64,000 bases of DNA from UHGV virus genome UHGV-1374671; one strand, 5' to 3'. Below, in pieces: positions 1,131 to 37,342 of this stretch. Position 1 is the first letter of the stretch. Each line of letters opens with the position of its first letter. Source of the DNA: a virus. The translations under genes were made by a program, and so were the position numbers. The notes beneath the pieces were generated by a model, which saw nothing but the letters and a program-made list of their open reading frames with translations, searched no databases and was not told where the DNA came from.

Positions 1131-1297
1131 AAGTTGTTGATCCGGCAACTGTCCATCAGACCCGTACCAGGATGAAACCGGGTCGCCGACATGCGCTTCT
1201 CAACCGGGTTCAGGTTGTAGTGTATGTGCACGTCCGACGACCAGGTTCACGAGCCTGGTTATTTAGTCATAAAAAGTTTAACATAAGGAGGTTATAC

Positions 1298-2431
1298 ATG
1301 TTCGAGAAGATACTGTTCATGGCTGACTGTCACATCAGGTCACGCACATGGACGAACTTCATGCAGCTCCAGGGAGACGCCTACTGCGCGCTGCAGAAAG
1401 TGTCCGATCAGCTGGCCGCCATGAAGAGCCCGCCGAAGGTGCTCGTAGTCGGAGGAGACTGGTTCGACGGAAACCGACCCAGTTCGTGGGACGTCAGGGA
1501 GACGTTCCGGTTTCTGAGTCAGTTCGAGCTGGTGTTGTTCGTGAACGGGAATCATGACAAGGTCGAGCCTTCGTTTCTGGAGATTCTCCAGGGACTGGGC
1601 TGTACGAACGTCAGGGTCGAGAATCTGCAGAACCAGCCCGGTCGCGTACTCCAGTTCGATAACCAGTTTTTCATAGCTGGACTGAATTGGGTGGAGAACG
1701 CTGATCAGCTGAAAGCGGCGATAAGGGAGATCGCCGTGGAGTACAAATCGCTCGGTACAGACCAGCCGCTGTACCTGGTTCTGCACACCAGCTTTCAGCA
1801 TCTGCTCGGTTACGAGGGCTCGTACAAGCTCACGATTCAGGACGTCGAGGAGATCTTCGGAGACAGCCAGGTTCGTGTGCTTGTGGGAGACATTCATACC
1901 CGTGACCTGACTCACATCAGCAACATGAACGGAAGCTACGTTCACAGTCCAGGATCGCTGTATCCCAGGAGCTTCGACAAGGTGAACGAGGAGTACGCCG
2001 TGTCGTTGATCGACACGGGCACGGGAGAGATCAGGGACCTCGACTGTCGTGTCAGGCTCTACTACCGATACGATTACAAGAGCCGTGACGAGCTCGATCA
2101 GCTGGTCGAGATCGCGAAGCAGGAAAGCAAGGACCTTCCACTGCCGCCGTTTATCAGGGTCGTCGTTCCGAAGGATTCTGAAGTCAAGATTCTTCAGACG
2201 GACTACGAGGACGTCGTCATCCAGGTCGTAACCGAGGATGTTGAGGACCAGGAGGAAGTCACCGCCAGACAGCTCCAGGAACAGTACACGCTTGCCCAGG
2301 CCGTTGCCGAGGAGGCGAACGAGGACGACGACATCAGGGATCTCGCCGTGGCGCTGATTTCAGCAGACGACCCGCTGGCCGAGATCGAGGGCTGGTTGAA
2401 GTTCTGGAATGTCGTCAGATCAACGATATGA
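1298..2431 (+). CDS. Mre11/SbcD-like calcineurin-family phosphoesterase (recombination nuclease subunit, T4 gp47-like)
   Basis: Metallophosphatase motifs: MADCHI, GGDWFD, GNHD. ATG at 1298 follows an AAGGAGG RBS; the ORF-track start at 1061 (GTG) is probably an upstream extension into the repeat region. Confidence 0.8.
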   Translation: MFEKILFMADCHIRSRTWTNFMQLQGDAYCALQKVSDQLAAMKSPPKVLVVGGDWFDGNRPSSWDVRETFRFLSQFELVLFVNGNHDKVEPSFLEILQGLGCTNVRVENLQNQPGRVLQFDNQFFIAGLNWVENADQLKAAIREIAVEYKSLGTDQPLYLVLHTSFQHLLGYEGSYKLTIQDVEEIFGDSQVRVLVGDIHTRDLTHISNMNGSYVHSPGSLYPRSFDKVNEEYAVSLIDTGTGEIRDLDCRVRLYYRYDYKSRDELDQLVEIAKQESKDLPLPPFIRVVVPKDSEVKILQTDYEDVVIQVVTEDVEDQEEVTARQLQEQYTLAQAVAEEANEDDDIRDLAVALISADDPLAEIEGWLKFWNVVRSTI

Positions 2432-2440
2432 GGTCATAGC

Positions 2441-11366: not shown

Positions 11367-12473
11367 GTGATAAGCAGAGCTCATACAATCAAGCTGAAAC
11401 CCAATAAAGCACAGGCGATCATGCTGGCCAAGACGGCCGGTACTGCCAGGTATGCCTACAACTGGGGATTGGCCAAGTGGAATGAGCTGTACGAAGCCGG
11501 TGAGAAGTGCAGTGCTTACAGCCTGATGAAACTTTGGCAAGAAGGCAGACCTGACTGGGCATTGGAAGTGGGCGCTGCGTGTTTGCAGCGCCCGTTCATG
11601 CACCTGGAAGGCGCCTTCAAAGCGTTCTTCAGAGGACAGCGTAAGCACCCAACCTTTCACAAGAAGGGTTTGCGGGACGGGTTCTACGTCCCGAATACTC
11701 ATTTCAAACTCCGTGGTAACAAGGTTCAGCTACCCAAGTGCGGACTTGTCAGAATGACCGAGCGTATTCGTTACGCGGATGTGAAGGTTGTTTCTTCGGC
11801 AGTCAAGCACCAGGCAGACGGCTGGTATGTCGTAATCCAGGTCGAGCTTGAAGAGGAACACAGAACCGAATCCGACTCTTTTGTCGGAGTCGATGTCGGA
11901 TGTACCCAGCTCGCAACAGCGAGCGACGGTACGACCTGCTGCTCACCGGCCAAGCTCAAAGACCTGGAACGTCAGCTGAAACGTAGACAGCGCTTGCTGG
12001 CACGCAAAGCCAAGGGCTCCAACAATCGAGCGAAAGCGAGATTGAAGGTAGCCCGTACCTGGCAACGAATCAACAATATCAAACAAGACACAGCTCACAA
12101 GTTCACTGCACTCATTGCCAAGAACCACGGCACTGTTTGCATTGAAAAGCTGGATGTGAAGAGTATGCAATCAGGAGACAACGCCCTCGTAAGAAAGGGC
12201 GTGCATAACTCCTGCATGTCGGAAATCCTGAGACAACTCAAGTACAAGTGTAACAACTTTATTGAAGTTGACAAGTATTTCCCGTCCAGTAAGACTTGTT
12301 CGAACTGTGGGCACATAAACGCTGAACTGACCCTTGGGGATCGCACGTATAATTGTCCGGGCTGCGGACTGAAAATCGACAGGGATCTGAACGCAGCGTT
12401 GAACCTCCGTAAGGAGGGTCTGAGGATTTACACGGTGGGTCACACCGGCAGTGCCTGTGGAGTTGCCCGGTAA
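11367..12473 (+). CDS. tnpB: TnpB (IS605/OrfB family RNA-guided RuvC-like nuclease)
   Basis: RuvC-I GVDVG, RuvC-II IEKLD, zinc finger CSNCGH..CPGCG, RuvC-III DRDLNAALNL. Catalytic residues are intact. 368 aa. Confidence 0.85.
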   Translation: MISRAHTIKLKPNKAQAIMLAKTAGTARYAYNWGLAKWNELYEAGEKCSAYSLMKLWQEGRPDWALEVGAACLQRPFMHLEGAFKAFFRGQRKHPTFHKKGLRDGFYVPNTHFKLRGNKVQLPKCGLVRMTERIRYADVKVVSSAVKHQADGWYVVIQVELEEEHRTESDSFVGVDVGCTQLATASDGTTCCSPAKLKDLERQLKRRQRLLARKAKGSNNRAKARLKVARTWQRINNIKQDTAHKFTALIAKNHGTVCIEKLDVKSMQSGDNALVRKGVHNSCMSEILRQLKYKCNNFIEVDKYFPSSKTCSNCGHINAELTLGDRTYNCPGCGLKIDRDLNAALNLRKEGLRIYTVGHTGSACGVAR

Positions 12474-19476: not shown

Positions 19477-20218
19477 AAAGACGAAACTTCACTTCACAAG
19501 GATCAGGGCCAAAGGGGAACCGTCGTTCTTCGATCCACAGACCGATATCAGGCAGCTGTTTCCTGCTGTGGCCAAAGCGGCGATCATGACGCTGCAGGAC
19601 CAGAACCCAGGGGACAAGGAACTGCAGCACGACCTGACCTACATTCACAACTGTCTCTGCATTTTCCAGATCAGGATTGCTGAGGACACCGCTCCGGTTG
19701 CCGATCAGGTTGCCGCGTTTTGCAAGGCGCTGGACAAGTGCCGCAGCTCGACCGTGTCATTGTTGAAGTCCAGATTCTTCACGATGATCATGATGCTGTT
19801 CGCGTTGTTCTGCCGGCGTGACGCCAAGGTGGATAAGGACCAGCTGTCAACCATGATGTCCATGATCCAGCTCGCACCGCTGTCCACCATGATCAGCAAG
19901 GAGCTGTTTCAGCAGGTGCAGGAGGAGCTGACGGCCAATGCTCCGGCAAAGCTGCATGACGTCTGTTATCCGGACGGGTGCAACATCATGTGCGAGGAGA
20001 CCCAACAGCAGCTCAAGGGAGCAAAAGACATTATTCGTCTTTTCGTCTCTGCTTCCGGTGACACCAGCTGGGAGGCCCTGGCTGCGGCCTGTGACGAGGC
20101 ATTTTCTACTCCGGGTATAAAATCCGACGCCCAGAACATTGCTCTGGCGTTGGCGTATCCGGATTACGAACACCCGTCCCTGTCTGTTGAAGTGGAGGCG
20201 GAGCATGACTCTCTATGA
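19469..20218 (+). CDS. Hypothetical protein
   Basis: 249-aa ORF. Confidence 0.45.
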   Translation: MSEKTKLHFTRIRAKGEPSFFDPQTDIRQLFPAVAKAAIMTLQDQNPGDKELQHDLTYIHNCLCIFQIRIAEDTAPVADQVAAFCKALDKCRSSTVSLLKSRFFTMIMMLFALFCRRDAKVDKDQLSTMMSMIQLAPLSTMISKELFQQVQEELTANAPAKLHDVCYPDGCNIMCEETQQQLKGAKDIIRLFVSASGDTSWEALAAACDEAFSTPGIKSDAQNIALALAYPDYEHPSLSVEVEAEHDSL

Positions 20219-21014
20219 CAAGTTGCAAAGACTGAAACGGATGCAGGACCTGGTGCTGTTCAAGTGGGTTTGCGGTCAGAAACGAGTGGCCAGCAATTTC
20301 ATCATGCTCAGCGATCTCAGGCTGAATACGCTTACCTGTCACGCCGGTCGCGTCGTGTTCTCCAGTGCGGCTCCTATTCTGTTCATGGAGAAAGGCAGAC
20401 CGGTGATCCAGTTCCGTGACTCGGACATCATGACTGTACTGAACGGACCAAGAAAGGGGATCAACATCCTTAGCCGTTTTTTGCAGCCTGGTGAGGAGGC
20501 TTCTGCTTGCAGATATTGCGACTGGCGTGAGGTCGTGGATTCCAGCTACTGTCCTAAGTGGTTGGAAGATAAGATCATGTCCATGGGAAACAGCCCGACG
20601 TATCCGGTCAGCAAGATCATCATGCCGGAACTGTTTCGCATCAGTAAGAAGCCGGAGACTCTGAAACCGATCTTCAGCTCCAGTTTCATCGAGGACATTG
20701 GAGGCTCCAAAACGGACTCGATGCAGGAGCTGCTGCAGAAGTTCTACAACAATTTGGACCTGTTTGGATATCACACCGACGAGGGTTATGTGATCAGCAA
20801 CGATTACATCGCCACTGGAGGATGCTGCGTAGCCGCCTCCAAGGGAATCAACGCACGTACAGGAAGCAGCGTGCACATGATGACCTTGAGAGCGTTCGCA
20901 GCGGACGTAGCCAGACGTCATTGGAGTATCCAACTGGCCAGACAAACCAAGCAATCAGGAGGCAACAACAATGGAGATGTGGAAAGATCTGATACTGTCC
21001 GTAACACCAGGTGA
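20205..21014 (+). CDS. Hypothetical protein
   Basis: ATG 20205 follows a GGAGGCGGAGC RBS, in frame within ORF 20139..21014. Confidence 0.45.
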   Translation: MTLYDKLQRLKRMQDLVLFKWVCGQKRVASNFIMLSDLRLNTLTCHAGRVVFSSAAPILFMEKGRPVIQFRDSDIMTVLNGPRKGINILSRFLQPGEEASACRYCDWREVVDSSYCPKWLEDKIMSMGNSPTYPVSKIIMPELFRISKKPETLKPIFSSSFIEDIGGSKTDSMQELLQKFYNNLDLFGYHTDEGYVISNDYIATGGCCVAASKGINARTGSSVHMMTLRAFAADVARRHWSIQLARQTKQSGGNNNGDVERSDTVRNTR

Positions 21015-21597
21015 TATCTGTTTCCTGGCTACTGCCACCACAGGACTGAATCCGGGGCCTGACAAGCTGTTGGGAGTGTCCTTGTGCAGATACAGTCCCC
21101 AGGAAGAGGCAGGGCAGACACTGCAGTTGATTCACAGCGTGGATCGGCTGCTGCTTTTGAAAGGCGAACGGTATCACAAGATATCGGAGAGCCTGATGCA
21201 GTCCGACGGACTCGATACACGGGAGTTCAGCGACCGATTCGACGAGTTCACCCAGGACTGTACGTTCCTGTCGTACAATCCGGAGTTCCAGGAGAAGTTC
21301 CTGAACACCATACTCAGGAATCCTGTCCACATCTACGATCTGCCGTTGCTGCTGCGCGGCGCGGAGACCAGGATGGTGTGGGACAGGGAAGAACTGTCGT
21401 CCCTGGACGAGATCACCAAGACGTTCTCGAAGGTGGTCGGAAAGGTTCCCAGCTTGAAGCAGTTGCTCAGACTGAACAACATGGTTGCCGAGCCGCCGTT
21501 CAACATGCTGCCTATGACCTACTTTTGCGCAGCCCTGTCCGGGCTCTGGGAGAAGTTCGACCTGATCCCTTTGGCAGTGCAAGAGTCGTTGGCTTGA
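20971..21597 (+). CDS. DnaQ/DEDD-fold exonuclease-like protein with substituted catalytic residues (probably inactive)
   Basis: Exo I position reads FLATATTGL (Ala where the acidic D-x-E is expected). Exo II-like FLSYNPEFQEKFL is present. Confidence 0.4.
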   Translation: MEMWKDLILSVTPGDICFLATATTGLNPGPDKLLGVSLCRYSPQEEAGQTLQLIHSVDRLLLLKGERYHKISESLMQSDGLDTREFSDRFDEFTQDCTFLSYNPEFQEKFLNTILRNPVHIYDLPLLLRGAETRMVWDREELSSLDEITKTFSKVVGKVPSLKQLLRLNNMVAEPPFNMLPMTYFCAALSGLWEKFDLIPLAVQESLA

Positions 21598-22072
21598 CGA
21601 GGTTGCGCATGCCTGCGGCAGCGGCCAGCAGATTGGCCCGGTTCACAAAACCGATCGCAGGCACGGCTTCCTTCGTTATGACCAGGCACTTGTTGGACTG
21701 CTTGCGGTTCAGCAACCCTGTGCTGGCGCCGGCAGGATAGTACAGCAGTACCTTTCCTCCCAGCCCGCACGGGTCGATGGCGCAGGATTTGTCGTCAGGT
21801 CCTGAGAGCTGCCATTTGGTCATGTCCACGGCAATGAATACGCCTTGCCTCTTTGTTCTTGGTGGTTTGCTGCAAGCGAGCAGGAAGCACAGGGATATCG
21901 GGGCAAGGTCTTCTATTTCCGTGTCCTTTGTCTCAAACAGAGGGCATGTCTGCAGAGTAGCGTACCGAATCACATCCGTTCCGGTTGCCTCTGTTATAAT
22001 GCTCTCAAAGTCAGCTACACGGATTCCTTTTGTGAGCTGATCCGCAAGCGTATAACACTCTAAACAATCCAT
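21512..22072 (-). CDS. Doubtful minus-strand ORF; if real, probably only the 3' ~100 codons (internal Met near 21826)
   Basis: GC3 is ~79% over 21600-21720 but ~40% over 21990-22072. Its start would lie 9 nt from the RT start. Long antisense ORFs are common in this GC-rich sequence. Confidence 0.2.
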   Translation of the reverse strand: MDCLECYTLADQLTKGIRVADFESIITEATGTDVIRYATLQTCPLFETKDTEIEDLAPISLCFLLACSKPPRTKRQGVFIAVDMTKWQLSGPDDKSCAIDPCGLGGKVLLYYPAGASTGLLNRKQSNKCLVITKEAVPAIGFVNRANLLAAAAGMRNLVKPTTLALPKGSGRTSPRARTGLRKSRS

Positions 22073-22081
22073 GAGGTCCCA

Positions 22082-23035
22082 ATGTTCGATTTTGACATGC
22101 CGCCCCTTGACTGGAGAACGGCATTTATCCCAAAAAAGTCAGGAGGGATGCGTAAGCTGCGAATCCCCAATGACGAGCTCAAGCGCGTTCAGCGCGACAT
22201 CTTAAACTACCTGTACACTGTAAAGGAGTTGAGGCCGTCAGGCTTCGCTCACGGCTTTGTTCCGTTCAGAAGTACCTGTACAGGAGCCATGCGACATGAT
22301 AGAAAGGCCGAGGTCATCCTGTGTATGGACGTACAGGATTTCTTTGACAACTTCCCGGTGGAACCGGTAAGGCAGGCCTTGCTGAATGCCCATATCGGTC
22401 GGGTTCTCACTGACAAGATCATCACAGCCTGCACCTGTGACGGGTCCTTTCCGCAAGGTGGACCGTGCAGTCCGTACCTGACCAACATCGGCATGAAGGA
22501 AGTGGACTTGTTGATCTCCGCGTATGCGGCCAACAACGGGTTCAATTACTCAAGGTATGCCGATGACATCGCCCTCAGTCGTGATCCGCATACGACAGTT
22601 CCAGAGAAGCGCAACTACAAGCACATTTTCTTCGGAGTCGAAAAGATTCTGAAGGAACGACTGGGGCTTCACCTGAAGCACAAGAAAGATCACACGATCT
22701 GGCTTCACAGCAAGAAGGCGCCCAGACGTATCACAGGTGTGGTGATCCGGAAAGACGGCACAGGCTACAACGCTCCGATGAAGATGCGCAAGCTGGGCCG
22801 TGCCATGTTGCACCGTCTGTATCAGAGAATCTCGGACCGCAACGGTGTGGTGCTGGATTCGGACTGGGCGGACTGGAGAAAGGTGCTGGGCTATGTCCAG
22901 TATTTCGACCGTATCCGTGCTTACAGCGAACCGGAGTCCGCCACTGCGGATCCCAAGATACCGGAGAATCAATTCAACTATATGGCAGCCAGATTTGGCA
23001 TGAAGAGGAGAACAAACAATGAAAACATACAGTGA
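22082..23035 (+). CDS. Reverse transcriptase, retron-like (317 aa, RT domain only)
   Basis: RT motifs IPKKSGGMRKLRIP (1/2), ILCMDVQDFF (A), FPQGGPCSPYLTN (B'), YSRYADDIALS (C, YADD). Downstream RRITGVVIR resembles the retron VTG motif, and LLNAHIG is near the retron NAxxH. GAGGT RBS. Confidence 0.8.
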   Translation: MFDFDMPPLDWRTAFIPKKSGGMRKLRIPNDELKRVQRDILNYLYTVKELRPSGFAHGFVPFRSTCTGAMRHDRKAEVILCMDVQDFFDNFPVEPVRQALLNAHIGRVLTDKIITACTCDGSFPQGGPCSPYLTNIGMKEVDLLISAYAANNGFNYSRYADDIALSRDPHTTVPEKRNYKHIFFGVEKILKERLGLHLKHKKDHTIWLHSKKAPRRITGVVIRKDGTGYNAPMKMRKLGRAMLHRLYQRISDRNGVVLDSDWADWRKVLGYVQYFDRIRAYSEPESATADPKIPENQFNYMAARFGMKRRTNNENIQ

Positions 23036-24992
23036 ACTCCTGCAGGAAGCCTGGGACGCCGACCGGGACTACTACGTCCTGGACAAGCCCACGCTCACCG
23101 ACGAGGAGTACGACAAACTCATTCGCAGCATAGAGGCCTATGAGATGCAGCACCCGGACGAGATCGATCCCAACAGCCCGACTCAGCGCATCGGCGGCAA
23201 GGTCTCAGGCGCGTTCCAGAAGGTAAAGCATCCGCAGAAGATGTTAAGCCTGAACAACGCGTTCACGCTGACAGAGCTTCAGCTGTTCGCCACCAAGGCC
23301 AACAGGACGGCGCCAGATGGTGTGACGTTCCTGGTGGAGCCGAAGCTGGACGGGCTCACGTTGGTCTGCTTCTACGAGGAAGGAAAGCTGATCAGGGCGG
23401 TAACCCGTGGCAACGGCGTAGAAGGAGAGGACGTCACCGCGACAGCCAGGACGATCCGCAATCTTCCGTTGACAGTTCCGTATGCCGAATCGTTCCAGGT
23501 GCGCGGCGAGTGCGTCATGCCCATCCAGGTGTTCATGGAGCTGAATGCGAAACTGACGGACGCCGGTGAGGAACCGTTCGCCAATCCCAGGAACGCGGCT
23601 GCCGGCAGCATTCGGCAGAAGGATCCGGCATTGGCTGCCGAGCGCAGGTTGTCCGTGTGCTTCTACGATCTCATCAACGGACCGGCAGACCGGATTTATA
23701 CTGAATCCGACAAGCTGGACTGGATGGAGGAGATCGGACTGCCCACCGTGAGATCAGCGTCCGAGGCGTTCGAGGACATCGAGGGCGCCTTCGAGTTCTG
23801 CACCCAGTGTGGAAAGGTTCGCTCCGATATGCCTATCGAAATCGACGGCATGGTTATCAAGGTGAATCGCATCTTCGTACAGGACAAGATGGGAGTCGGA
23901 ACCAAGTTCCCGAACTGGGCCGTGGCTTATAAGTTCCCTGCGGAGCACAAGGCGACCAGCCTGACCTCAGTCGAGTGGCAGGTGGGGCGCACCGGAAAGG
24001 TGACTCCCGTGGCAGTGGTGGACGCCGTCAACATGAACGGCATCTTGCTCACTCACGCCAGCCTTCACAACCCGGCCTACATTGAAGCCCTGGACCTTCG
24101 TATCGGGGACAAGGTGACGGTGTACAAGGCGGCTGAGATCATCCCGCAGGTAGGCACGGTACTGGAACACGGCGACGGGCAGAAGGTGAAGATCGCGGAT
24201 CAGTGTCCCAGCTGCGGAACCAAACTGGTGCAGGACGGTGCCGATCTCATGTGCACGAATCCGAAGTGCATTGGACGCCTGGTCACCTGGCTGTACTATT
24301 TCGGAGCCAGGGCCAACATGTACATCAAGGGTCTCGGTGTTGCCGTTATCAAGCAGCTGGTGGACTCAGGTATGTGCAAGGATCCTGCAGATCTGTACGC
24401 GCTGACCAGGGATCAGCTGCTGAAGCTGGACGGGTTCAGCGACAAGAAAGCTGACTCGCTGCTGGCCTCCATCCAGGAGTCCAAGGCGCGTCCGTACCAC
24501 AGAGTGCTCGCATCCCTGGGCATCGAGATGCTGGGCGATTCCACTGCCGTTGACGTGGCTGCCCAATTTCCCACCATGGAGGCCCTTCTGGCTGCGACTG
24601 TGTCCGACCTGATGGAAATACCTGGGATCGCACAAAAGACAGCCACAGCGATCTATGCGGGCCTGCATGACGATTCCATGGAGGACATCATAACCAGACT
24701 CGGAAAACAGGGTCTGTCGATGGTCAGCGAGTCGTCCAAGGAGCCGCAGACGCTGTCCGGGCTTTCCATCTGCATCACCGGAACTCTCACCAGGGATCGT
24801 GATTCCTACAAGGACGAGATCCAGTCGCATGGTGGAAAATTCGCAACCTCGGTGTCATCCAAGACCAGCTACCTGGTCGTAGGCGAGAACGTTGGTGAAA
24901 CAAAACTGACAAAAGCAAGGAAGCTCGGCATCCCGATGATATCGGAGGACCAGCTTCAGGAGTTGATCAAACATGGAAAACAACAAAATTGA
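23019..24992 (+). CDS. ligA: NAD-dependent DNA ligase
   Basis: LigA N-terminal Ia domain; adenylation KxDG (EPKLDGL); OB, Zn, HhH and C-terminal BRCT-like regions. 657 aa. Confidence 0.85.
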   Translation: MKTYSELLQEAWDADRDYYVLDKPTLTDEEYDKLIRSIEAYEMQHPDEIDPNSPTQRIGGKVSGAFQKVKHPQKMLSLNNAFTLTELQLFATKANRTAPDGVTFLVEPKLDGLTLVCFYEEGKLIRAVTRGNGVEGEDVTATARTIRNLPLTVPYAESFQVRGECVMPIQVFMELNAKLTDAGEEPFANPRNAAAGSIRQKDPALAAERRLSVCFYDLINGPADRIYTESDKLDWMEEIGLPTVRSASEAFEDIEGAFEFCTQCGKVRSDMPIEIDGMVIKVNRIFVQDKMGVGTKFPNWAVAYKFPAEHKATSLTSVEWQVGRTGKVTPVAVVDAVNMNGILLTHASLHNPAYIEALDLRIGDKVTVYKAAEIIPQVGTVLEHGDGQKVKIADQCPSCGTKLVQDGADLMCTNPKCIGRLVTWLYYFGARANMYIKGLGVAVIKQLVDSGMCKDPADLYALTRDQLLKLDGFSDKKADSLLASIQESKARPYHRVLASLGIEMLGDSTAVDVAAQFPTMEALLAATVSDLMEIPGIAQKTATAIYAGLHDDSMEDIITRLGKQGLSMVSESSKEPQTLSGLSICITGTLTRDRDSYKDEIQSHGGKFATSVSSKTSYLVVGENVGETKLTKARKLGIPMISEDQLQELIKHGKQQN

Positions 24993-25956
24993 ACTGGACG
25001 ACATCACGCCGGCCTCGTTCGCGCATCTGATCGAGCGACGTGACGACATCCTCCTTCAGCACGGAGGTGTGGTTACCCGCATGTATTTCGACAAGGTCGA
25101 GCTGATGGATCTGGACGCTTTCCTTCAGCAGGAGGTGCCCAGGCTGAAGCGACAGCAGCAGGAGCTCACGATCATACGTGACTCCGTCAGCAAATCCGTC
25201 AGCCTGATTACCGGAGACCAGGTGATCAAGTACCACCTCACGAACATGGAGGAGTGCTTCGCGGACGAGCTGGCCAAGCTGATCAAGGTGGATGAGGTGA
25301 AGACGTTCATCCCGGACATTCACTATCCGTTGATCGGGTATGTGGACAAGGCCGATTACAAGGTGATAACTGTTCTTATCGAGAACAAATCGTTCACGTA
25401 CAGAACCAAGATGTTCGGCGGCGATCAGAAGGAATACGCCACGCGTGTTCACCTTCCACCGATATGGCTGGCTGTCCGCGTCAACAGGGCCGGTACGGTT
25501 CTCGGGGCCAGGATCGCTGCAGTACCGGAGAAGTCGTTGAAGACGGAGGACACGGTGCTGTACCGGCTCCCGCTTCCGAACATACACGTCAACGGAGAAC
25601 TGTGTCTTGGCACAGCTGCAGTAAAGGACGCATTTGCGCACGTGGAGCAGCCTACTGATGGCATGATTATTCAGGTCGTTGTTGATCAGATCTTCAACAG
25701 TCTGTGGAACTATGACCTTATAGATCGCGATCTCGCCGAAGTGGTGAATGACGCCTACAGGAAAGCGCGTGTCAACAACCGTGACGCGTTCGACTCGTTT
25801 ATTTCATATGCTGCTGGTAACCAGGCTGTTGCGATGCAGATCCGTATTGTTGGAATCCTGACCGATCCCAATGGTTGGAAGTTATTGAAGTACCGCAAGA
25901 TGAACAAATACGGCGGTGGAGACAGGATGCCTGTTACGCAGTTTCTGGAGGGCTGA
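24973..25956 (+). CDS. E2 (UBC)-like ubiquitin-conjugating enzyme homolog
   Basis: Active-site signature LPNIHVNGELCLG (cf. eukaryotic HPNIxxNGxICL) with a candidate catalytic Cys. Start overlaps the ligA stop. Confidence 0.6.
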   Translation: MENNKIELDDITPASFAHLIERRDDILLQHGGVVTRMYFDKVELMDLDAFLQQEVPRLKRQQQELTIIRDSVSKSVSLITGDQVIKYHLTNMEECFADELAKLIKVDEVKTFIPDIHYPLIGYVDKADYKVITVLIENKSFTYRTKMFGGDQKEYATRVHLPPIWLAVRVNRAGTVLGARIAAVPEKSLKTEDTVLYRLPLPNIHVNGELCLGTAAVKDAFAHVEQPTDGMIIQVVVDQIFNSLWNYDLIDRDLAEVVNDAYRKARVNNRDAFDSFISYAAGNQAVAMQIRIVGILTDPNGWKLLKYRKMNKYGGGDRMPVTQFLEG

Positions 25957-25959
25957 CAG

Positions 25960-26199
25960 ATGCGGGAACCCTTGTTTAAAAGGAAGCGGCCGATCAGGGT
26001 CGTCCTGCAGCGCGCCCCGTATTACGGGTACGCTCCGATCGGCAAAGAGGGGAACAGCGGAATGAACGCGTTCAACGCAGCCTTCGAGCAGGCTGTGAAA
26101 GCCACCAAGATGACGGTGATGGCCAACGCCATGAAACAAATCCAAAAAGAGGCCGAGCATGTAGACTCGGATCTCGATATCCGAACAATTGAGGTGTAA
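25960..26199 (+). CDS. Small hypothetical protein within the Ubl module
   Basis: 79-aa ORF tightly packed between the E2-like and JAB genes. Confidence 0.4.
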   Translation: MREPLFKRKRPIRVVLQRAPYYGYAPIGKEGNSGMNAFNAAFEQAVKATKMTVMANAMKQIQKEAEHVDSDLDIRTIEV

Positions 26200-27355
26200 G
26201 ATGAGAAGTTATCTGATTGGGAGCGACAGGTGTCTTGTGCACACCAAATCTCCCATGCTGGAAGGGTGGGAGCCTTGCAAGGACCTGGAGGTCATCAAGG
26301 CGTTCGCCCCCAAGTGCAACCCCAAGTACCAGCCTGGGATGGTCTGGGTAGGCAGCAAGATGCCGTCCGAGCTCTTCCAGAAGGTGCTTGGCACGTTTGC
26401 GCAGTTCCCGAAGATGGAAACAGCGTACTCGATCTATTACCGGCTCAGCGACAGAAGCTGGCACATTAAAGTTCCTTCCCAGTGCGGGGCAGGGGCGTCC
26501 GTGCAGTTCGAGGACAAGGGGGATGGCGTACCGGCAGGCTATGCTCTGATCGGGTCCATTCATACGCATCCAGAAATGGGTGCGTTCTGGAGCGGTACCG
26601 ACATGAACGACCAGAAAAGCAAGTACGGGCTGCATATGGTATTCGGTCTCAAGGACGGAAAGGTGGCTCATCACAAGTGCTCCATCTTCACTCCCACGGA
26701 CAAGTATGACCAGGAGATCTGGAACGTGGTCGAGGAAACCGACTTGGACGCCGACTATGAAGCTCCCCCGGAGTGGGTCGAGAAGATCAGGGCCCAGGAT
26801 TACAAGCCGGTGAGGCAGTCCTGGGTGCAGCCTCTTCCGTACGACGTTTCCGGCAAGTACAGGTCTCCGGGTCAGTTTATGCGACCCCGTTACAACGTCC
26901 TCAGGCCTGTCACGTACACCTGGGATGCCGGCAGCGGCTGGCACAAGAATGATCCAGACGTGGCACAGCCCACTTGGGAAGCCGGCACTTTCTCTTATCA
27001 TGAGCCTGACGTCAATGCCCAGGAGCAAGTGTCCGACGCTGTTCTGAAAGCGCGTAAGGAATTTGAGAACGCACTGGACGTCCTTGTATGCGAGGCCGAC
27101 TCCGAATACGTTCAGGAACTTCTGGACAGCTACGGGTTCTCCACGATGGACATGGAAACCGGCGCCATTGCCGGCGACGACGAGGACATCTCCTGGGAGG
27201 AGTCCCTGGACGAAGCTCTGGCAGTGGCTGCGGAGTTCGCCGACGCGGACCCCAACCCGGAGACCAGGGATACTATGCGGGCCATCCTGCAGAAGTACGG
27301 GTTTGTCAGTGTCCATGCTCTGGATGAACAGGAAGAGGAGGCTCCATCATGCTGA
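26189..27355 (+). CDS. JAB/MPN (JAMM) metallopeptidase, deubiquitinase-like
   Basis: JAMM motif HTHPEMGAFWSGTD (HxHx7Sx2D). Confidence 0.7.
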   Translation: MRCKMRSYLIGSDRCLVHTKSPMLEGWEPCKDLEVIKAFAPKCNPKYQPGMVWVGSKMPSELFQKVLGTFAQFPKMETAYSIYYRLSDRSWHIKVPSQCGAGASVQFEDKGDGVPAGYALIGSIHTHPEMGAFWSGTDMNDQKSKYGLHMVFGLKDGKVAHHKCSIFTPTDKYDQEIWNVVEETDLDADYEAPPEWVEKIRAQDYKPVRQSWVQPLPYDVSGKYRSPGQFMRPRYNVLRPVTYTWDAGSGWHKNDPDVAQPTWEAGTFSYHEPDVNAQEQVSDAVLKARKEFENALDVLVCEADSEYVQELLDSYGFSTMDMETGAIAGDDEDISWEESLDEALAVAAEFADADPNPETRDTMRAILQKYGFVSVHALDEQEEEAPSC

Positions 27356-28245
27356 ACATCTATGTGATCGGCTGTGGAGGCATCGGAGGGTACCTGACTG
27401 AGATGCTGCCGATGGCGATCGCCAGTCTGTCCCTGGACATTCTCCAGAGCAAGGGCATGTCCATTCAGGCGTACTTGGACAAGGCCGGCAACATCGCACT
27501 GCCTTGTGTCGCTGACCGGCTCACTCTGGTAGACGGGGATATCTTCAACGCCAGGAACTCCCTGCGACAGGGAGCAGGCGCCGGCAGCAAATTGGCCCAG
27601 CGAATGCAGGACATCCAGCACTCCGTGGTCAGGCTCAGCTATCTGCAGAACATGAAGCTAGTCGGGTATAACGCCTATGTGAACCCGGCCAACATGTCAC
27701 AGATCATACCTGAGCATCCGGAAATCAACCCGGACAACGCGGACGCCGCCATGAAGTACGGTAGCGATAGGCCTGCAGACTGTCCGAGACTGTTGGACAA
27801 CTCGGTAGTGTTCCTGTGCGTGGACAACCTCAAGACCAGGTACGAGGTTTCCAAGTACATGGAAAACTTCCAGAACTGCCTTGTCATCAATGGCGGGAAT
27901 GAGAAGACCTCAGGACACGTCACTCTCTATGAGCGCCGGAACGGGGAAGCACTTGATCCCAACATCTACGACGTGTATCCCAACATCACACCGGACGCGG
28001 ACAAGCGTCCCGACGAGGAGGCATGCACCGAGATGTCTCCCAAACACGATCAGATTGCGGTGACGAACAGCATCGTCGCCAACATCATGATAGCCAGCTT
28101 CAACCGGTGGGCCAGATCAGGACTGACCCAGACGGAGGGAACCGGCGAAAGAAAGCGCACGGTGCGCAAAAACGAGGTGATCATTGACACTGACAGGATG
28201 TCCATGATTTCCGTGTATCACCCGCTGGGAACGCCCAGCAAGTAA
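27349..28245 (+). CDS. E1-like (ThiF/MoeB/UBA family) activating enzyme
   Basis: Rossmann IGCGGIGG; adenylation motif LTLVDGDIFNARNSLRQ; candidate catalytic Cys in LCVDNLKTR. Start overlaps the JAB stop. Confidence 0.7.
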   Translation: MLNIYVIGCGGIGGYLTEMLPMAIASLSLDILQSKGMSIQAYLDKAGNIALPCVADRLTLVDGDIFNARNSLRQGAGAGSKLAQRMQDIQHSVVRLSYLQNMKLVGYNAYVNPANMSQIIPEHPEINPDNADAAMKYGSDRPADCPRLLDNSVVFLCVDNLKTRYEVSKYMENFQNCLVINGGNEKTSGHVTLYERRNGEALDPNIYDVYPNITPDADKRPDEEACTEMSPKHDQIAVTNSIVANIMIASFNRWARSGLTQTEGTGERKRTVRKNEVIIDTDRMSMISVYHPLGTPSK

Positions 28246-28271
28246 CCAGGCAAACGAAAGGAAAAACAATC

Positions 28272-28700
28272 ATGCCTACCACCCTGTTCAACGTCTATTC
28301 CGACCGTACCCGTGACATCCAGCTGAATCCCGGCACCACTGTCGGGCAGCTTCGTCGCATTCTCAAGGAGGGCGGATACGACGTCGTCGAAGCAACCGCC
28401 CACGTGGATCGTGCCGACGGCAGCGTCCTGCATGGCTACGTGGACAACTACGTACTCAAGGAGGGCGATGGCGTTCGCTTCAACACCGTCGTTCATGAGT
28501 ACCCCGCCGAGGACTACCTCCAGAAGCAGGAGGAAGCCCGCAAGGCGGCTCATGCCTGCACCTGCCACGAGTGCAAGTGCGACGCCGCCGAGCAGTCCGT
28601 CAGCGTCGATACGCTGAAGTCCGGTGACCGCACCATTGTCGTCGGCAAGGCCAAGATCACCATGAACGGTGATACGGTCACCATCGTTATCGGCAAGTAA
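28272..28700 (+). CDS. Ubiquitin-like (beta-grasp) domain protein
   Basis: The N-terminal ~75 aa follow a ubiquitin-like hydrophobic pattern. No C-terminal GG; the C-terminal half is Cys-rich. Immediately downstream of the E1-like gene. Confidence 0.4.
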   Translation: MPTTLFNVYSDRTRDIQLNPGTTVGQLRRILKEGGYDVVEATAHVDRADGSVLHGYVDNYVLKEGDGVRFNTVVHEYPAEDYLQKQEEARKAAHACTCHECKCDAAEQSVSVDTLKSGDRTIVVGKAKITMNGDTVTIVIGK

Positions 28701-29393
28701 ATGTCAGTCGATAGAGTAAAAACAACGTCAACAACAAACAATCAAGTCATGGAGACGGGTATGGTATCCGTCTCCGAATCCAAAAACAAAGAAGGAAACA
28801 GTATCATGAAAGAGATCATCATCAACGGCATCAACGGCGCTTCCATCAACTTCGCGGCGGAGGACAACACCACTCTGGCTCAGATCTGCGAGCACGAGAC
28901 GGTCATGGCGTTCTTCGACGAGGAAGCCGATACCATCAAGGAGAGCCTGCTGGAGATGAACGGCGGTGACGTCAGCGCGTTCCGCTCCTCCCTGCTCACC
29001 GCTCAGCCGTCGGACGGTGACTCTCTCCTGTTCGATCTGGACGGAGAGGTTGAGGAGGATAACTCCGATGAGGACGGCGAGGATGGCGTGGTCGTCGTGG
29101 CCACCAGCGGCGGTCTGCAGACCACCAACGTGGACATCGTCTGCGGCCGCACCACGGTCCATGACGCGATTTACTGTGACGTGGTCCGTGCCCGCAGCGG
29201 TATGACCGACGCCCAGCTGTCGAACTGCACCATCCTCCTGAACGAGGAGGAGATCTCCGACGAGGTGTCCCGTACCCGCACTCTGCGCAACGGCGACACC
29301 ATTACGCTGTCCGCCCGTGCTGCGTCTTCCAAGGGCAAGACCTCGAAGAAGGTCGGGTTGCTGAAGGCCTTTGTCAAGGTCGTCTGCCGGTAA
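28701..29393 (+). CDS. Protein with tandem small beta-grasp/ThiS-like units ending in internal GG
   Basis: EIIINGINGASINF...LLEMNGG at ~aa 36-88 and ...VVVATSGG near aa 140, followed by a third Ubl-like segment TNVDIVCGRTTVHDAIY...LRNGDTITL. An alternative start is ATG 28806 after an AAGGAAA RBS. Confidence 0.45.
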   Translation: MSVDRVKTTSTTNNQVMETGMVSVSESKNKEGNSIMKEIIINGINGASINFAAEDNTTLAQICEHETVMAFFDEEADTIKESLLEMNGGDVSAFRSSLLTAQPSDGDSLLFDLDGEVEEDNSDEDGEDGVVVVATSGGLQTTNVDIVCGRTTVHDAIYCDVVRARSGMTDAQLSNCTILLNEEEISDEVSRTRTLRNGDTITLSARAASSKGKTSKKVGLLKAFVKVVCR

Positions 29394-29399
29394 CCAACC

Positions 29400-29918
29400 A
29401 TGGAGGACAGTCGGATGAGAACGTGGAAGATTGAGATCCCTTTGAGGGTTCGCTGTGTTCAGAGCACCAGAGGAGGGCGAGGTCATTTTCACGTCGATCC
29501 GGCTGTCCGCAAGTGGAAGGAAGCCATTGCTCCGTACATCCGTGCCTGCAGTCCTGGACGACCGTCCAAGATGCCTATCCGGGTGAAATCCTTCGTGTAC
29601 TACTTCCGCTGCCCGAAATCGGCAAAGGCTCCCGTCGTCCGCTACATCAAGGACGGCGGCGAGGTCCCGTACATGGGCGTTGCAGACATCACGGACAACA
29701 TGAACAAAGGTGTTGTGGACGTCTGCAAGGGAGTGGTGTTCGAGGACGATTCTCAGATATGGCACGTCTGCGGCATCAAGAAGTTGTATGGACTTACCGA
29801 TCACATCTTGCTGGAGTTCGAGGAAACACCTGACGTTGTCCTGATCAACGGCAAAAGAGGAAGTTCTCTCAGTGACGATCAAGACGAGATTCAAGACGAC
29901 ACCTGCTCTCTTATCTGA
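29400..29918 (+). CDS. rusA: RusA-like Holliday junction resolvase
   Basis: RusA catalytic motif DITDNMNKGVVDVCKGVVFEDD (cf. DxDNxxK...D). Confidence 0.65.
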   Translation: MEDSRMRTWKIEIPLRVRCVQSTRGGRGHFHVDPAVRKWKEAIAPYIRACSPGRPSKMPIRVKSFVYYFRCPKSAKAPVVRYIKDGGEVPYMGVADITDNMNKGVVDVCKGVVFEDDSQIWHVCGIKKLYGLTDHILLEFEETPDVVLINGKRGSSLSDDQDEIQDDTCSLI

Positions 29919-30354
29919 GAGAGGTGCGTTGCATGTCCTGGTTGACATGCTTTGGAAAAACGGAGAGTACACCCGATCAGAAGTGTACTCGCTCCTGTCC
30001 CGTATTCTGCAGCAAGACAACCCGGTGCACATCTCTGATCTTGATCACAGCGAGATGTTGAAGGTAAGCCTGCGGATACAGAGGATGTTGGAGCAGGACG
30101 GGATAGCGCCCTGCCGTCAGTGCAAGTTTTGCGGCGCCGAGTGCACAACGCTCGGTATGCGGATCTGCGCACTGACCGGCAGGCCTTTCTGCTATCGGTA
30201 TCAGAACAGTGAATTGATGCTCGCTCCTTGCGAGCGATACACAGAGGCCAGACATGCGAAGATTCTGCAATCTGAAGAAGCCGTCATTTTCCGAGAGGAA
30301 AATCGTGTATATGAACGTAATGGGGATACCGCTACCTGTTGCCGTTCCCAGTGA
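29872..30354 (+). CDS. Hypothetical Cys-rich protein
   Basis: ORF with CRQCKFCGAEC; start uncertain because it overlaps rusA. Confidence 0.35.
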   Translation: MTIKTRFKTTPALLSERGALHVLVDMLWKNGEYTRSEVYSLLSRILQQDNPVHISDLDHSEMLKVSLRIQRMLEQDGIAPCRQCKFCGAECTTLGMRICALTGRPFCYRYQNSELMLAPCERYTEARHAKILQSEEAVIFREENRVYERNGDTATCCRSQ

Positions 30355-31480
30355 AAGAGAATTGGCCAAATACCAGGAGCAGGACTGCACGCTGGAAGAT
30401 CTGCTGATTTTTCAGGTGTCAGAGCTCAATGCGACATTCCCCAATAACCCGTACCAGCTGCTGTGCAAGGCAATGGATCCGGTGCGTGATTCTTACTGGC
30501 TGCTCGGTAAAACAGACTGTGAAGCTACACGCCGAATAAGGGGCGAGGTCGAGGCTTCCTGCGTGCGCAAATACAGAAGTTTCGTCCACATCTTTGATGG
30601 GCGTCTCTGGGGCAACGACCACATAGTGCGGGTAGACCGCACCTTAAGTGTGGCCGACTTCCGGGAGATGCTGAACCGGACGATTTACTACATCGACGGT
30701 AAGAGCGACCTGCCGAAGTGCGATCAGTTGCTTGGGTTGCCGTACAACGTCTCTCCGTCTACTGGAGATACATCTGCCGATGACATGCTGGATCAATCTT
30801 TCGTGTTCGTCGTTGACTGGTTTAAAGCCTGGTTCAGTTACCTGCAGATCGATGCGGTAAGCATGATGTGCGATTCCTTCAGCTCAAACGTGAAGTACGA
30901 CGACCGTTATGTCAAGTCCTTTATCGGGCATTATCTGCTCGGTATCAAAGAGCCTGAACCTGATCCTGAGGCTGAGCCAGTCGAAGAGATCAGGACAGAC
31001 GCTGAGGTACCGGAGGTTGAGAACCAACCCCAGGAGCCTGTTATTCAGCAGGAAGAAGAGGAAGTGCTCGATCCGGTTGTCTACCCGGATGGAATCCACA
31101 TGCTGGAGACCATGTCCGGCCAGGAACAGCAGTTCTTCCGGGTCAAGGCCGAGGCCACAGTCAACTTCAGCATGCAATTCAGCTTCACGGAGCACTACCT
31201 GAAGCAGTACGTCGACACATTCAACGCAACGCTCGCTCCGGCAGGAGTCACAGTCAGGGCGACAGGCGCGAACTTCGCCTGTGTCGAGTTCGATCGCCTG
31301 GAGGTGTGCGACGGATATCCGACAGCCGAGTCCATGAACTTTGAGAGCATCAAGGAGAAGGCGGCGTTGGTGGACATGATCTACAAGATTTTGGTCGACA
31401 TGCACCGGCGCAACCGGCTGTACAAGCAGGTCGTAGCCACAGGCAAAACCCAGTTGCTCGATGGAGCACAGAAAGGATGA
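30254..31480 (+). CDS. Hypothetical protein (acidic central region)
   Basis: 408-aa ORF; an alternative start is ATG 30311. Confidence 0.45.
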   Translation: MRRFCNLKKPSFSERKIVYMNVMGIPLPVAVPSERELAKYQEQDCTLEDLLIFQVSELNATFPNNPYQLLCKAMDPVRDSYWLLGKTDCEATRRIRGEVEASCVRKYRSFVHIFDGRLWGNDHIVRVDRTLSVADFREMLNRTIYYIDGKSDLPKCDQLLGLPYNVSPSTGDTSADDMLDQSFVFVVDWFKAWFSYLQIDAVSMMCDSFSSNVKYDDRYVKSFIGHYLLGIKEPEPDPEAEPVEEIRTDAEVPEVENQPQEPVIQQEEEEVLDPVVYPDGIHMLETMSGQEQQFFRVKAEATVNFSMQFSFTEHYLKQYVDTFNATLAPAGVTVRATGANFACVEFDRLEVCDGYPTAESMNFESIKEKAALVDMIYKILVDMHRRNRLYKQVVATGKTQLLDGAQKG

Positions 31481-31937
31481 GATGATTCTTCTGTTCACAG
31501 ATGGAAGCGCCATCCGGAATCCTGGGCCGTCAGGTTGGGCGTGGGTCGCCGTCCGGGAAGGACAGCGACTCGCCTATCATGCCGGCTACATTCCGAACGG
31601 CACCAACAACCGGGGAGAGCTCACGGCCGCCATCAACGCATTGAAGTTCGTTTCCGGCATCCGTGGGCAGTACCCGAATGAGCGCATCGTTCTGGTGTCT
31701 GACAGCCGGTATGTCATCGGCGGGCTCAGTCAGTGCGACGAATGGGCTGTGGAGCCGGGAAAGCCGAACTCCGATCTGTGGGAGCAGGCCTACGATGCGC
31801 TTTTGAATGTCGGATGCCCGATCTCCATGAAATGGGTGAGAGGGCATACCGGAAACAAGAACAACGAACTTTGTGACCGGCTGGCCAGGAACGCGGCCAA
31901 GACCGGTGAGGAGGATCAATGGCGGCTTTCCAAATGA
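31461..31937 (+). CDS. RNase H (RNase HI family)
   Basis: DGSAIRNPGPSG, NNRGELTAAINAL, SDSRYV, and GHTGNKNNELCDRLA match RNase HI catalytic motifs. Confidence 0.8.
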   Translation: MEHRKDEMILLFTDGSAIRNPGPSGWAWVAVREGQRLAYHAGYIPNGTNNRGELTAAINALKFVSGIRGQYPNERIVLVSDSRYVIGGLSQCDEWAVEPGKPNSDLWEQAYDALLNVGCPISMKWVRGHTGNKNNELCDRLARNAAKTGEEDQWRLSK

Positions 31938-36230: not shown

Positions 36231-36370
36231 GAGGGTGTCATGTCATTCTGGGAATTTTGTCAGATGCTGTTCGGATTCTGGCTTGCTTTCGTACTGTTGG
36301 GTATTCCGGCAGGTATTCTGAAGTCATTGCTGGAGTCTATCGGAAGAAAATCAAAGATATGAGGTTACAA

Positions 36371-37342
36371 ATGAACATCATAGATCAGAGCGTCGAATCT
36401 GTGTTGATGGACAACGCCATGGAGCGCATCGAGTTCGCCGGCCGGGTGTGTTACAACAGCACGGATCGGATCAAGAAAGGCGAGACAGCCCTTCCGTTTG
36501 TGAAAGGGCTTATCCAGGCAGGGCACGGTACACCGCTGGAGGCGGCCCGTGTCGGGATCGTTGTTTCCGATCTGCTGGAGTTTGTGCGCTGGCACAAAGG
36601 GGACGAGGCCGCCAAGGTGGCGGACACTATCATTCAAGACTTCCGTGTAAACAGGAACCATCGTGTGTACTTTGTGTGCGACGATGCTTTGTCCATCACG
36701 GTGCGCGACTACCTGATGGAAGGGTTTCCGTTGGAGTTCCTGGAGAATCCGGATAACTACTGCATGGACCCGTCGTTCGCCACAGTGGTGATTGTCACGG
36801 ATCGAGGCATAGCCAATGAGTGCGTCAGGCATCGTGTGCTGCACTATGACGATGACGGGTATCCGACTGTCTGGAACGATCCTCCTGCCGGAAACCAGGA
36901 GGACATGTCCATGGTGCAGGCCAGTACGCGGTACATCAATTACGGCAAGAAGCCGTTCAGTCTTGTGCGCCCGTCTCCGGCTCCCTGGGCCACTCAGGAG
37001 GACAGCAAGGAGTACCAGCTTTGGTATGCATCCTGCAAGCAGTCGTTCGACACCTACAAGATCATGCTTGAGTCCGGTGTTCCCCAGCAGTTCGCCAGAA
37101 ACGTGCTTCCTCTCAGTACCGCCACTACGGTAGTGATGTCAGGAACTAGCACACAATGGACCGATTTCCTGAAACTCAGACTGGATACGGCTGCGCATCC
37201 GCAGATGATCGTACTTGCAAATATGATTCTCAGATCTGAGGCCGTGAAGCAGGCAATCCCCACCCTGGTGTATGCGGATTTGCTGGAGCTCGCCAAGCCA
37301 GGAATTGAAAAGGTAAACAAGATACAGGAAGGACTGTTATGA
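36371..37342 (+). CDS. thyX: Flavin-dependent thymidylate synthase (ThyX-like)
   Basis: ThyX-like FAGRVCYNS and RHR...S..RY segments. ATG 36371 follows a GAGGT RBS. Motif assignment not checked against a profile. Confidence 0.5.
   Translation: MNIIDQSVESVLMDNAMERIEFAGRVCYNSTDRIKKGETALPFVKGLIQAGHGTPLEAARVGIVVSDLLEFVRWHKGDEAAKVADTIIQDFRVNRNHRVYFVCDDALSITVRDYLMEGFPLEFLENPDNYCMDPSFATVVIVTDRGIANECVRHRVLHYDDDGYPTVWNDPPAGNQEDMSMVQASTRYINYGKKPFSLVRPSPAPWATQEDSKEYQLWYASCKQSFDTYKIMLESGVPQQFARNVLPLSTATTVVMSGTSTQWTDFLKLRLDTAAHPQMIVLANMILRSEAVKQAIPTLVYADLLELAKPGIEKVNKIQEGLL

Follow-up and report, generated by a model that had tools for sequence, protein, structure and literature searches.

Several bacterial systems bring together an activating enzyme (E1), a conjugating enzyme (E2) and a JAB peptidase. 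Those with a known role, type II CBASS (a system for anti-phage signalling by cyclic oligonucleotides) and Bil, all protect bacteria from phages, and for Bub and PRTRC a similar role is suspected or none is known. CBASS, Bil and Bub had been characterised as of PMC10557695 and PMC11601596, and PRTRC is not among the systems so described. This ParB-related, ThiF-related cassette is the type 6d operon of Iyer, Burroughs and Aravind 2006. Besides an E1 and a JAB that has an N-terminal domain, it contains a ubiquitin-like protein (Ubl) with a Gly at its C-terminus, a helical protein and an E2 without the classical His (PMC1779556). In the type 6d E2 a His on the C-terminal side of the catalytic Cys is absolutely conserved, and the JAB of this type carries a JAB-N domain with strictly conserved Arg and Trp (PMC1779556). 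In this study we analysed a stretch of 64,000 nucleotides (the window) from the virus genome UHGV-1374671, and focused on a block of six genes, here called A to F, which encodes an E2-like protein (A), a JAB/JAMM metallopeptidase (C), an E1-like enzyme (D), a Ubl (F) and two further proteins (B and E). We consider it probable that these six genes form a self-contained, phage-owned pathway of ubiquitin-like protein conjugation, and profile comparisons indicate that its nearest known system is the PRTRC cassette, or type 6d, and not Bil or Cap2/Cap3.

An earlier sequence-only reading of the window had proposed a complete phage-encoded conjugation module at this position. Its observations are confirmed and its interpretation is partly supported. 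The six plus-strand open reading frames (ORFs) that it listed after ligA are all present, tightly packed and either overlapping or near-abutting (Table 1), as are all the motifs that it quoted, namely NIHVNGELCLG in A, HTHPEMGAFWSGTD (the JAMM motif) in C, and GCGGIGG, RQ and DN in the E1-like protein. Its assignment of A, C and D to the E2, JAB and E1 classes is also borne out by the profile searches and family alignments described below.

On its profile matches A is an E2-like protein of the Prok-E2_D superfamily. Its N-terminal extension, about 150 aa long and conserved, precedes the Prok-E2_D core, which matches the Pfam model with an E value of 3.1e-5 (24.2 bits, cut-off 25). C211, G213 and P162 occur in all 44 family members of an alignment, N203 and N246 in 42 each. 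The family consensus of the active site is [LF]-P-N-x7-C-x-G, Asn203 standing eight residues before Cys211, and this spacing of Asn to Cys equals that of the HPN...C active site of eukaryotic UBC proteins. When 1.84 billion representative proteins were searched exhaustively with HMMER, only 81 relatives of A emerged (representatives at 50% identity, mostly of about 290-350 aa); the family is compact and distinct. A further E2 match, the 6117-aa protein P0207, was rejected as spurious, being the sum of very weak matches to Ig-like repeats.

The JAB protein, C, matches Pfam Prok-JAB (E 2.3e-5, 24.6 bits, cut-off 25). Its ORF is open from a TTG at 26189, which gave the 388 aa of the sequence-only reading, and the ATG at 26201 is the most likely start, shortening the protein to 384 aa. 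The catalytic set of E73, H121, H123, S131 and D134 is invariant in 11 JAB proteins from four phage lineages, and W192 is the sole residue outside this set to be invariant across the lineages. Within the clade there is in addition a conserved JAB N-terminal region with invariant Trp residues (GW and WxG), in which no invariant Arg was seen. The borderline Pfam scores of A and C are firmed up at the level of the family, since Prok-E2_D is matched independently by 33 of the 44 A relatives (best 6e-9), with no other family recurring, and Prok-JAB by 9 of the 11 JAB relatives. The C-terminal half of C (from about residue 200 to 384, some 185 residues) is acidic and highly variable in both length and sequence, and the total length of the JAB among relatives ranges from 231 to 494 aa. 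One clade member (L098) has a JAB of 231 aa consisting of the core only, and there the catalytic core alone suffices.

For D, a single ThiF/MoeB-type domain, the match to Pfam ThiF (E 3.9e-8, 33.2 bits) exceeds the cut-off of 28.1, and all 28 aligned E1 relatives match the same family. Invariant in the E1 alignment are the P-loop GCGGIGG, D62/D64, N70, R73/Q74, K81, D159/N160, R164 and Cys226, and neither a rhodanese domain nor a second adenylation domain was present in the Pfam scan or the alignment. Homologues of D in a large protein collection (147 at E <= 0.001) all come from metagenome or read-archive assemblies, on contigs of up to 187 kb. Four of them (P0022, P0027, P0035 and P0082) carry a charged-rich insertion of about 45-65 aa after residue ~96 which is absent from D.

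Gene F has no match to a sequence family in Pfam, NCBIfam, PHROGs or PADLOC, and its nature was apparent from structure prediction. Its most likely start is the ATG at 28806, because it has an AAGGA 9 nt before it and because the resulting N-terminus, MKEI, is that of most homologues. AlphaFold2, run with an alignment of 15 sequences, returned two confident domains (10-residue block means of the predicted local distance difference test, pLDDT, of 82-89 over most of both), arranged as a tandem of beta-grasp folds with an acidic linker between them and a disordered tail after. Homology between the two domains was detected by hhalign (85%, E 6e-6), and a Foldseek comparison with viral models returned polyubiquitin-containing proteins, with tail tip proteins also among the matches. 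At the C-terminal end of F the only invariant feature in 21 homologues is a Lys/x-Gly, beyond which lie 0-18 variable residues, and several homologues terminate exactly at the Gly. Ubls in general have a beta-grasp fold and a flexible C-terminus ending in a peptidase-exposed Gly, and the fold and K-G of F conform to this. The predicted structure and the conserved K-G mark F as a genuine Ubl with a C-terminal Gly. The sequence-only reading had seen in F short Ubl-like units with an internal GG; the units stand, as two domains, while the functional Gly is that of the C-terminal K-G. The internal SGG was rejected as a cleavage site, as it opens the first strand of domain 2 and is SAG in one relative, only one of its Gly residues being invariant among the homologues.

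A related locus on a 33.7-kb contig of Logan SRR17418339 (L097) proved informative about the maturation of F. The gene after the E1 in this contig (4935-6047) encodes two complete F-like di-beta-grasp units head to tail, both of which align through the end of the F profile. Unit 1 ends in ...AGDKG at residue 181 and unit 2 begins at once, ending in ...AGDKG-GC. This polyubiquitin-like tandem suggests that the C-terminal Gly is the mature end of the modifier and that the JAB is the likely processing enzyme, so that C is likely to cleave F at Lys-Gly.

A pathway can be proposed in which the order of the chemical steps would follow that of Bil and eukaryotic systems. F would be made as a precursor consisting of two beta-grasp domains, Lys-Gly and a disposable tail, and C would cut it after the Gly, which would thereby be exposed; in L097 the JAB would also split the two-unit polyprotein into single units. 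The ThiF-type E1 (D) would then adenylate the Gly with ATP, probably by way of a thioester on the invariant Cys226, and the Ubl would be handed to Cys211 of A. As no E3 is present, it is proposed that the conserved N-terminal domain of A may select the target. Finally, one or more target proteins would receive the Ubl on their lysines, and the JAB may also reverse the mark.

Some points weigh against such a pathway. No target, E3 or substrate-recognition domain was identified, and the analogy leans on Bil, CBASS and eukaryotic systems because no function is known for the parent PRTRC family. Both A and C of the window lie slightly under the Pfam gathering cut-offs, and a profile search of PDB sequences of solved structures with the E2 and E1 families gave nothing significant, the best match being a chain of ThiF fold (9egc, E 0.04). 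The thioester step on the E1 is uncertain, since D, which is short and MoeB/ThiF-like, lacks a CYS domain of its own. Lastly, F finds its best structural match in a sulfur carrier (MoaD2/ThiS).

This last match bears on a different explanation, that the block is a sulfur-carrier pathway in which the E1 adenylates F for conversion to a thiocarboxylate, as with ThiS, MoaD, CysO and TtuB. F would then donate sulfur so that phage DNA, tRNA or a cofactor could be thio-modified, and the JAB would merely expose the Gly, as Mec+ does for CysO. We regard this as very unlikely. Sulfur-carrier pathways such as ThiS/ThiF and MoaD/MoeB have no E2 and need none, whereas the block always includes an E2-like protein whose Cys is invariant and which has a UBC-like Asn. 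They also require sulfurtransferase partners, yet there is no rhodanese domain on the E1, and no sulfurtransferase, MoaE, ThiG or TtuA-type partner is found in or beside the block. The polyubiquitin-like tandem of L097 is moreover typical of protein modifiers, and all three enzymes find their best NCBIfam matches in PRTRC proteins.

Those matches are PRTRC_B for A (E 6e-4), PRTRC_A for C (E 1.6e-6) and PRTRC_ThiF for D (E 5e-6), and they are part of a wider resemblance. In both systems E2, JAB and E1 are separate proteins accompanied by a Ubl ending in Gly, and a JAB with an intact JAMM motif is a gene of its own beside a ThiF-type E1 without rhodanese. Both also have an extra small helical-looking protein and are carried by mobile elements with DNA-handling genes adjacent. 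A profile scan of 185,579 bacterial and archaeal species (one genome each) found no close copy of the block and only four distant relatives at 21-25% identity. One of the four, L016 (Kaistella), is a genuine PRTRC cassette in which PRTRC_E, C, B and ThiF score close to their cut-offs or exceed them; the phage E2 profile detects its PRTRC_B at 2.6e-11, and its Ubl (PRTRC_C) ends in ...TKG, comparable with the conserved K-G of F.

The differences are nevertheless such that, going by these comparisons, the phage block is a relative of PRTRC and not a strict member. The scores of the three enzymes are far below the NCBIfam cut-offs (19 against 131 for A, 28 against 102 for C and 26 against 145 for D). 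The His after the Cys that defines type 6d is missing, none being conserved after C211 in the 44 members, and the His that is present in A of the window (AFAH) is not conserved in the family. The phage E2 is about 100 aa longer and has an extra conserved N-terminal domain, and the phage Ubl has two beta-grasp domains and a tail where PRTRC_C is a single domain of about 70 aa. There is no ParB, PRTRC_E or PRTRC_F match in or directly beside the block, and its carrier is a phage of about 176 kb and not an integrative and conjugative element or a plasmid.

The other systems are further removed. The sequence-only reading had named Bil and Cap2/Cap3 as the known counterparts, and as nearest relatives these do not hold, given the absence of a PADLOC match, the single-domain E1, the different gene order and the PRTRC matches in NCBIfam. 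Bil (BilABCD, types I and II) is bacterial and defensive; its E1 is multidomain (IAD-AAD-CYS), in contrast to the single 298-aa domain of D, its E2 is of the Prok-E2_B/CEHH kind where A matches Prok-E2_D only, and its gene order is Ubl-E2-deubiquitinase-E1 against E2-B-JAB-E1-E-Ubl in the phage (PMC10557695, PMC11601596). With Cap2/Cap3 of type II CBASS (type 6b) the block shares E1, E2 and JAB chemistry, and the weak PADLOC matches of D are to E1-E2 models only and cover the P-loop only. Cap2, however, is an E2-E1 fusion which conjugates a CD-NTase and not a Ubl, and neither a CD-NTase nor an effector is encoded in the block according to Pfam and PADLOC. The sequence-only reading was thus right that the block, with E2 and E1 as separate genes, is unlike the Cap2/Cap3 fusions. 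Bub (type 6e) resembles it in having Ubls with 1-3 domains of beta-grasp fold which are cut from precursors by a JAB (PMC11601596), and differs in its Ubl-E2 and JAB-E1 fusions, its DUF6527 serine protease and its Ser/Tyr oxyester intermediates; the phage proteins are separate, have no DUF6527 match, and keep the Cys of both E2 and E1 invariant. The one pairing of a Gly-bearing beta-grasp protein and a JAB that had previously been described in phages is that of tail assembly protein I (a Ubl with a conserved Gly) and protein K (JAB and NlpC/P60) of lambda/T1 (PMC1779556). This pair lacks E1 and E2 and belongs to a tail module, whereas the present block lies in a replication region with a full activation and conjugation set.

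Analysis of related loci also helped to clarify the history of the block. The gene order RT-(ligase)-E2-small-JAB-E1-E-F-RusA, in which RT is a retron-type reverse transcriptase, is kept in L001-L008, L017-L022 and L098, and L097, where the E gene is absent, retains the remainder. Recurrence in this fixed order is far beyond chance. A profile search of IMG/VR with RusA gave 80 loci, among which the close RusA relatives were confined to six E1-bearing contigs, and all six had the whole block. In L002 the identities of E2 (26%), JAB (38%) and E1 (47%) are comparable with those of RT (37%), ligase (39%) and RusA (53%), and because the divergence of the block tracks that of the flanking genes, vertical inheritance fits. 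The block is present even in L098, a clade member in which the identity of the E1 is down to 42%. L097 differs in using TAG as a sense codon, each gene containing 4-21 in-frame TAGs and ending in a true stop of TAA or TGA. Gln occupies the TAG positions in the database protein. No such recoding is seen in the block of the window.

These observations are relevant to the suggestion that the block is defence cargo carried by the phage, which in the manner of Bil would put the Ubl on structural proteins of competing phages and so bring about superinfection exclusion. Such a role is in our estimate unlikely. The block has no match to a PADLOC defence model, occupies, in every clade member, a fixed site within the region of replication and recombination genes, and co-diverges with its neighbours without any sign of a variable hotspot. 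The absence of a close copy in the 185,579 species genomes indicates, furthermore, that it is not circulating among bacterial defence islands, and the same absence is consistent with a virulent-type lifestyle. A conjugation pathway owned by the phage would more plausibly serve phage replication or host takeover than the exclusion of other phages. Virion modification, takeover and counter-defence, as suggested in the sequence-only reading, would be candidate roles.

More distant sets of E2-like protein, JAB and E1 were found in the viral contigs L009, L010 and L011 and in the isolated Bacillus phage vB_BceM_WH1 (L012), and such sets occur in at least three other phage lineages. L009 and L011 are IMG/VR contigs of about 55 kb and L010 is a contig of 149 kb, and in all of them the gene order differs. 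A Mgm101/Rad52-type annealing protein adjoins the set in L009 and L011; a ParB-like motif (DGQHR) near the L011 module had no Pfam match and was set aside. A 61-aa ThiS-like ORF in L010 (2421-2606) ends in ...SGHKGE, and the domains of F showed similarity neither to this ORF nor to real PRTRC_C. In vB_BceM_WH1 only gp216 is annotated, as ThiF. The products of its neighbours gp214 and gp215 are annotated as hypothetical, the former having the E2 motifs and a match to the phage E2 profile at 3e-6, and the latter being a JAB with HSHNTMGAFWSGTD. No Ubl gene was identified in this phage.

The L010 set adjoins Pnkp, RlaP and RNA ligase 1 (Rnl1), RNA-repair genes which in T4 have counter-defence functions. 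This neighbourhood would fit a further explanation, that the enzymes mainly counter a Ubl system of the host, the JAB stripping host Bil-type Ubl from phage proteins and F acting as a decoy or competitive substrate which occupies the host E1 and E2, with little conjugation of its own. Host Bil systems do tag phage structural proteins (PMC11601596), and deconjugases are reported to be common among eukaryotic viruses (PMC7464072). A deconjugase or decoy alone, however, would not need the E1 and E2 active sites to be intact in every genome, and we judge this explanation highly improbable beside that of a phage-owned conjugation pathway.

It is possible, although we would place the chances slightly below even, that a lineage of large phages keeps a complete ubiquitination-like pathway as a vertically inherited core and uses it offensively, tagging host proteins such as defence and DNA-repair factors, or else its own replication and recombination proteins. 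Ubl conjugation would in that case be a weapon on both sides of the conflict between phages and bacteria, and there would be a first functional handle on the uncharacterised PRTRC/6d family of conjugative elements. Here the same chemistry as in the protective bacterial systems is virus-encoded, with all catalytic residues intact, and throughout a whole clade it has a fixed place in the replication region. Its distinct features are the architecture of the E2, a di-beta-grasp and polyubiquitin-capable modifier, and its standing as a phage-borne, vertically inherited relative of the PRTRC type. Literature searches, which were incomplete in coverage, returned no paper on a complete phage-encoded set of E1, E2, JAB and Ubl. 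An active pathway would be a compact Ubl system free of an E3 and would open a search for the benefit that phages derive from protein tagging, with vB_BceM_WH1 as a possible culturable and tractable model for the PRTRC-like branch. As the modifier ends in Lys-Gly, a distinctive single-Gly remnant would then be expected.

The remaining two proteins of the block are less readily placed. B has no match in Pfam, NCBIfam, PHROGs or PADLOC. A fast-evolving small ORF of 62-93 aa lies between E2 and JAB in all relatives, with a gene called at this position in L001, L002 and L098, and the positional orthologues have in common a short core, ..F.aAF..a..; B is conserved by position only. Positional orthologues of E are 30-44% identical and share a layout in which a variable linker rich in Cys and His joins a conserved N-terminal region of ~75 aa to a beta-rich C-terminus. 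The sequence-only reading had taken E for a beta-grasp Ubl, a label which is not justified. The AlphaFold model is too poor to use (pLDDT 39), and no C-terminal Gly is conserved in the homologues. The N-terminal ~75 residues do have a ThiS/MoaD-like pattern and align in register to both F domain 1 and MoaD, though non-significantly: when this domain was compared by hhalign with the F domains and with ThiS, MoaD and ubiquitin, no alignment was significant, F domain 1 reaching only 13% probability over 73 columns and MoaD P 0.014. A zinc finger was likewise considered for E and dropped, the Cys/His cluster of the linker not being conserved in relatives. B and E could act as an adaptor, a substrate or a regulator.

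The features of the block and its surroundings are collected in Table 1. The sequence-only reading had suggested that the six genes form an operon. A co-directional block of fixed order is indeed present, but a scan for promoters and terminators gave no signal exceeding chance, so that it is a section of a long co-directional transcription unit and not an operon with punctuation of its own. The viral setting assumed in that reading is well founded: nearly all genes of the window are on one strand, PHROG matches include SbcCD-like, helicase, DnaB-like and clamp-loader-like proteins, and the relatives are IMG/VR viral contigs of 164-179 kb, all of which gives the window a viral appearance.

Table 1. 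Positions of the six-gene block, its functional sites and other features (window coordinates unless stated otherwise)
Feature	Position	Strand	Remarks
SbcD-like and SbcC-like nuclease subunits	1061-4450		
TnpB / IS605 OrfB-type gene	11367-12473		within replication region
ORF beside RT	21512-22072	-	186 aa
Retron-type reverse transcriptase (RT)	22082-23035	+	upstream of ligase
NAD-dependent DNA ligase (ligA)	23019-24992		upstream of A
A, E2-like conjugating enzyme	24973-25956	+	327 aa; Pfam Prok-E2_D, NCBIfam PRTRC_B
A, active-site motif L-P-N203-x7-C211-x-G213	25579-25611		Cys codon 25603-25605
A, second near-invariant Asn (Asn246)	25708		
B, small protein	25960-26199	+	79 aa; without family match
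C, JAB/JAMM metallopeptidase	26201-27355	+	384 aa; Pfam Prok-JAB, NCBIfam PRTRC_A
C, Glu73	26417		catalytic
C, H121-x-H123-x7-S131-x2-D134	26561-26602		catalytic
C, variable C-terminal half	26801-27355		
D, E1-like adenylating enzyme	27349-28245	+	298 aa; Pfam ThiF; 7-nt overlap with C
D, P-loop GCGGIGG	27370-27390		
D, R73-Q74	27565		
D, D159-N160	27823		
D, Cys226 (RPDExxC)	28024-28026		
E	28272-28700	+	142 aa; eight database homologues and positional orthologues
F, ubiquitin-like modifier precursor	28806-29393	+	195 aa; ORF open from 28701; alternative ATG 28761
F, invariant Lys-Gly	29331-29336		Gly codon 29334-29336
F, tail	29337-29390		18 aa; predicted to be removed
RusA	29400-29918		downstream of F
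RNase H	31461-31937		downstream of RusA
ThyX thymidylate synthase	36257-37342		
vB_BceM_WH1 gp214-gp216	181723-184817 of LC597490.1		Bacillus cereus phage, 230 kb

The block had no nucleotide match by blastn in 50,697 GenBank phage records, and tblastn with the E2 against GenBank phages likewise gave no match. None of the six proteins matched a PHROG, and in PADLOC the weak P-loop matches of D were the only ones recorded. Rfam applied to positions 20000-30000 gave a single sub-threshold match, to the Guanidine-III riboswitch at 29230-29302 inside the coding sequence of F (23 bits against 36, E 0.18), which is almost certainly due to chance. No tRNA genes are present in the window.

Other genes in the window are worth recording. 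The RT matches NCBIfam retron_St85_RT at 7e-42 and many PADLOC retron RT models near 1e-41, and it lies directly 5' of the ligase and the Ubl block in every relative. No known RNA was found in its region by Rfam, no further search for a retron non-coding RNA having been made. Of the genes in this region a single one, next to the RT, is on the minus strand; its 186-aa product has no Pfam match and is kept in L002 and L098 at 32-34% identity (E 1e-24 to 1e-26). The replication and repair genes of the window further include the SbcD-like and SbcC-like nuclease subunits and ThyX, and within the replication region there is also a TnpB / IS605 OrfB-type gene, with a match to OrfB_IS605 at 1e-23, a Cas12f1-like TNB domain and HTH_OrfB_IS605.

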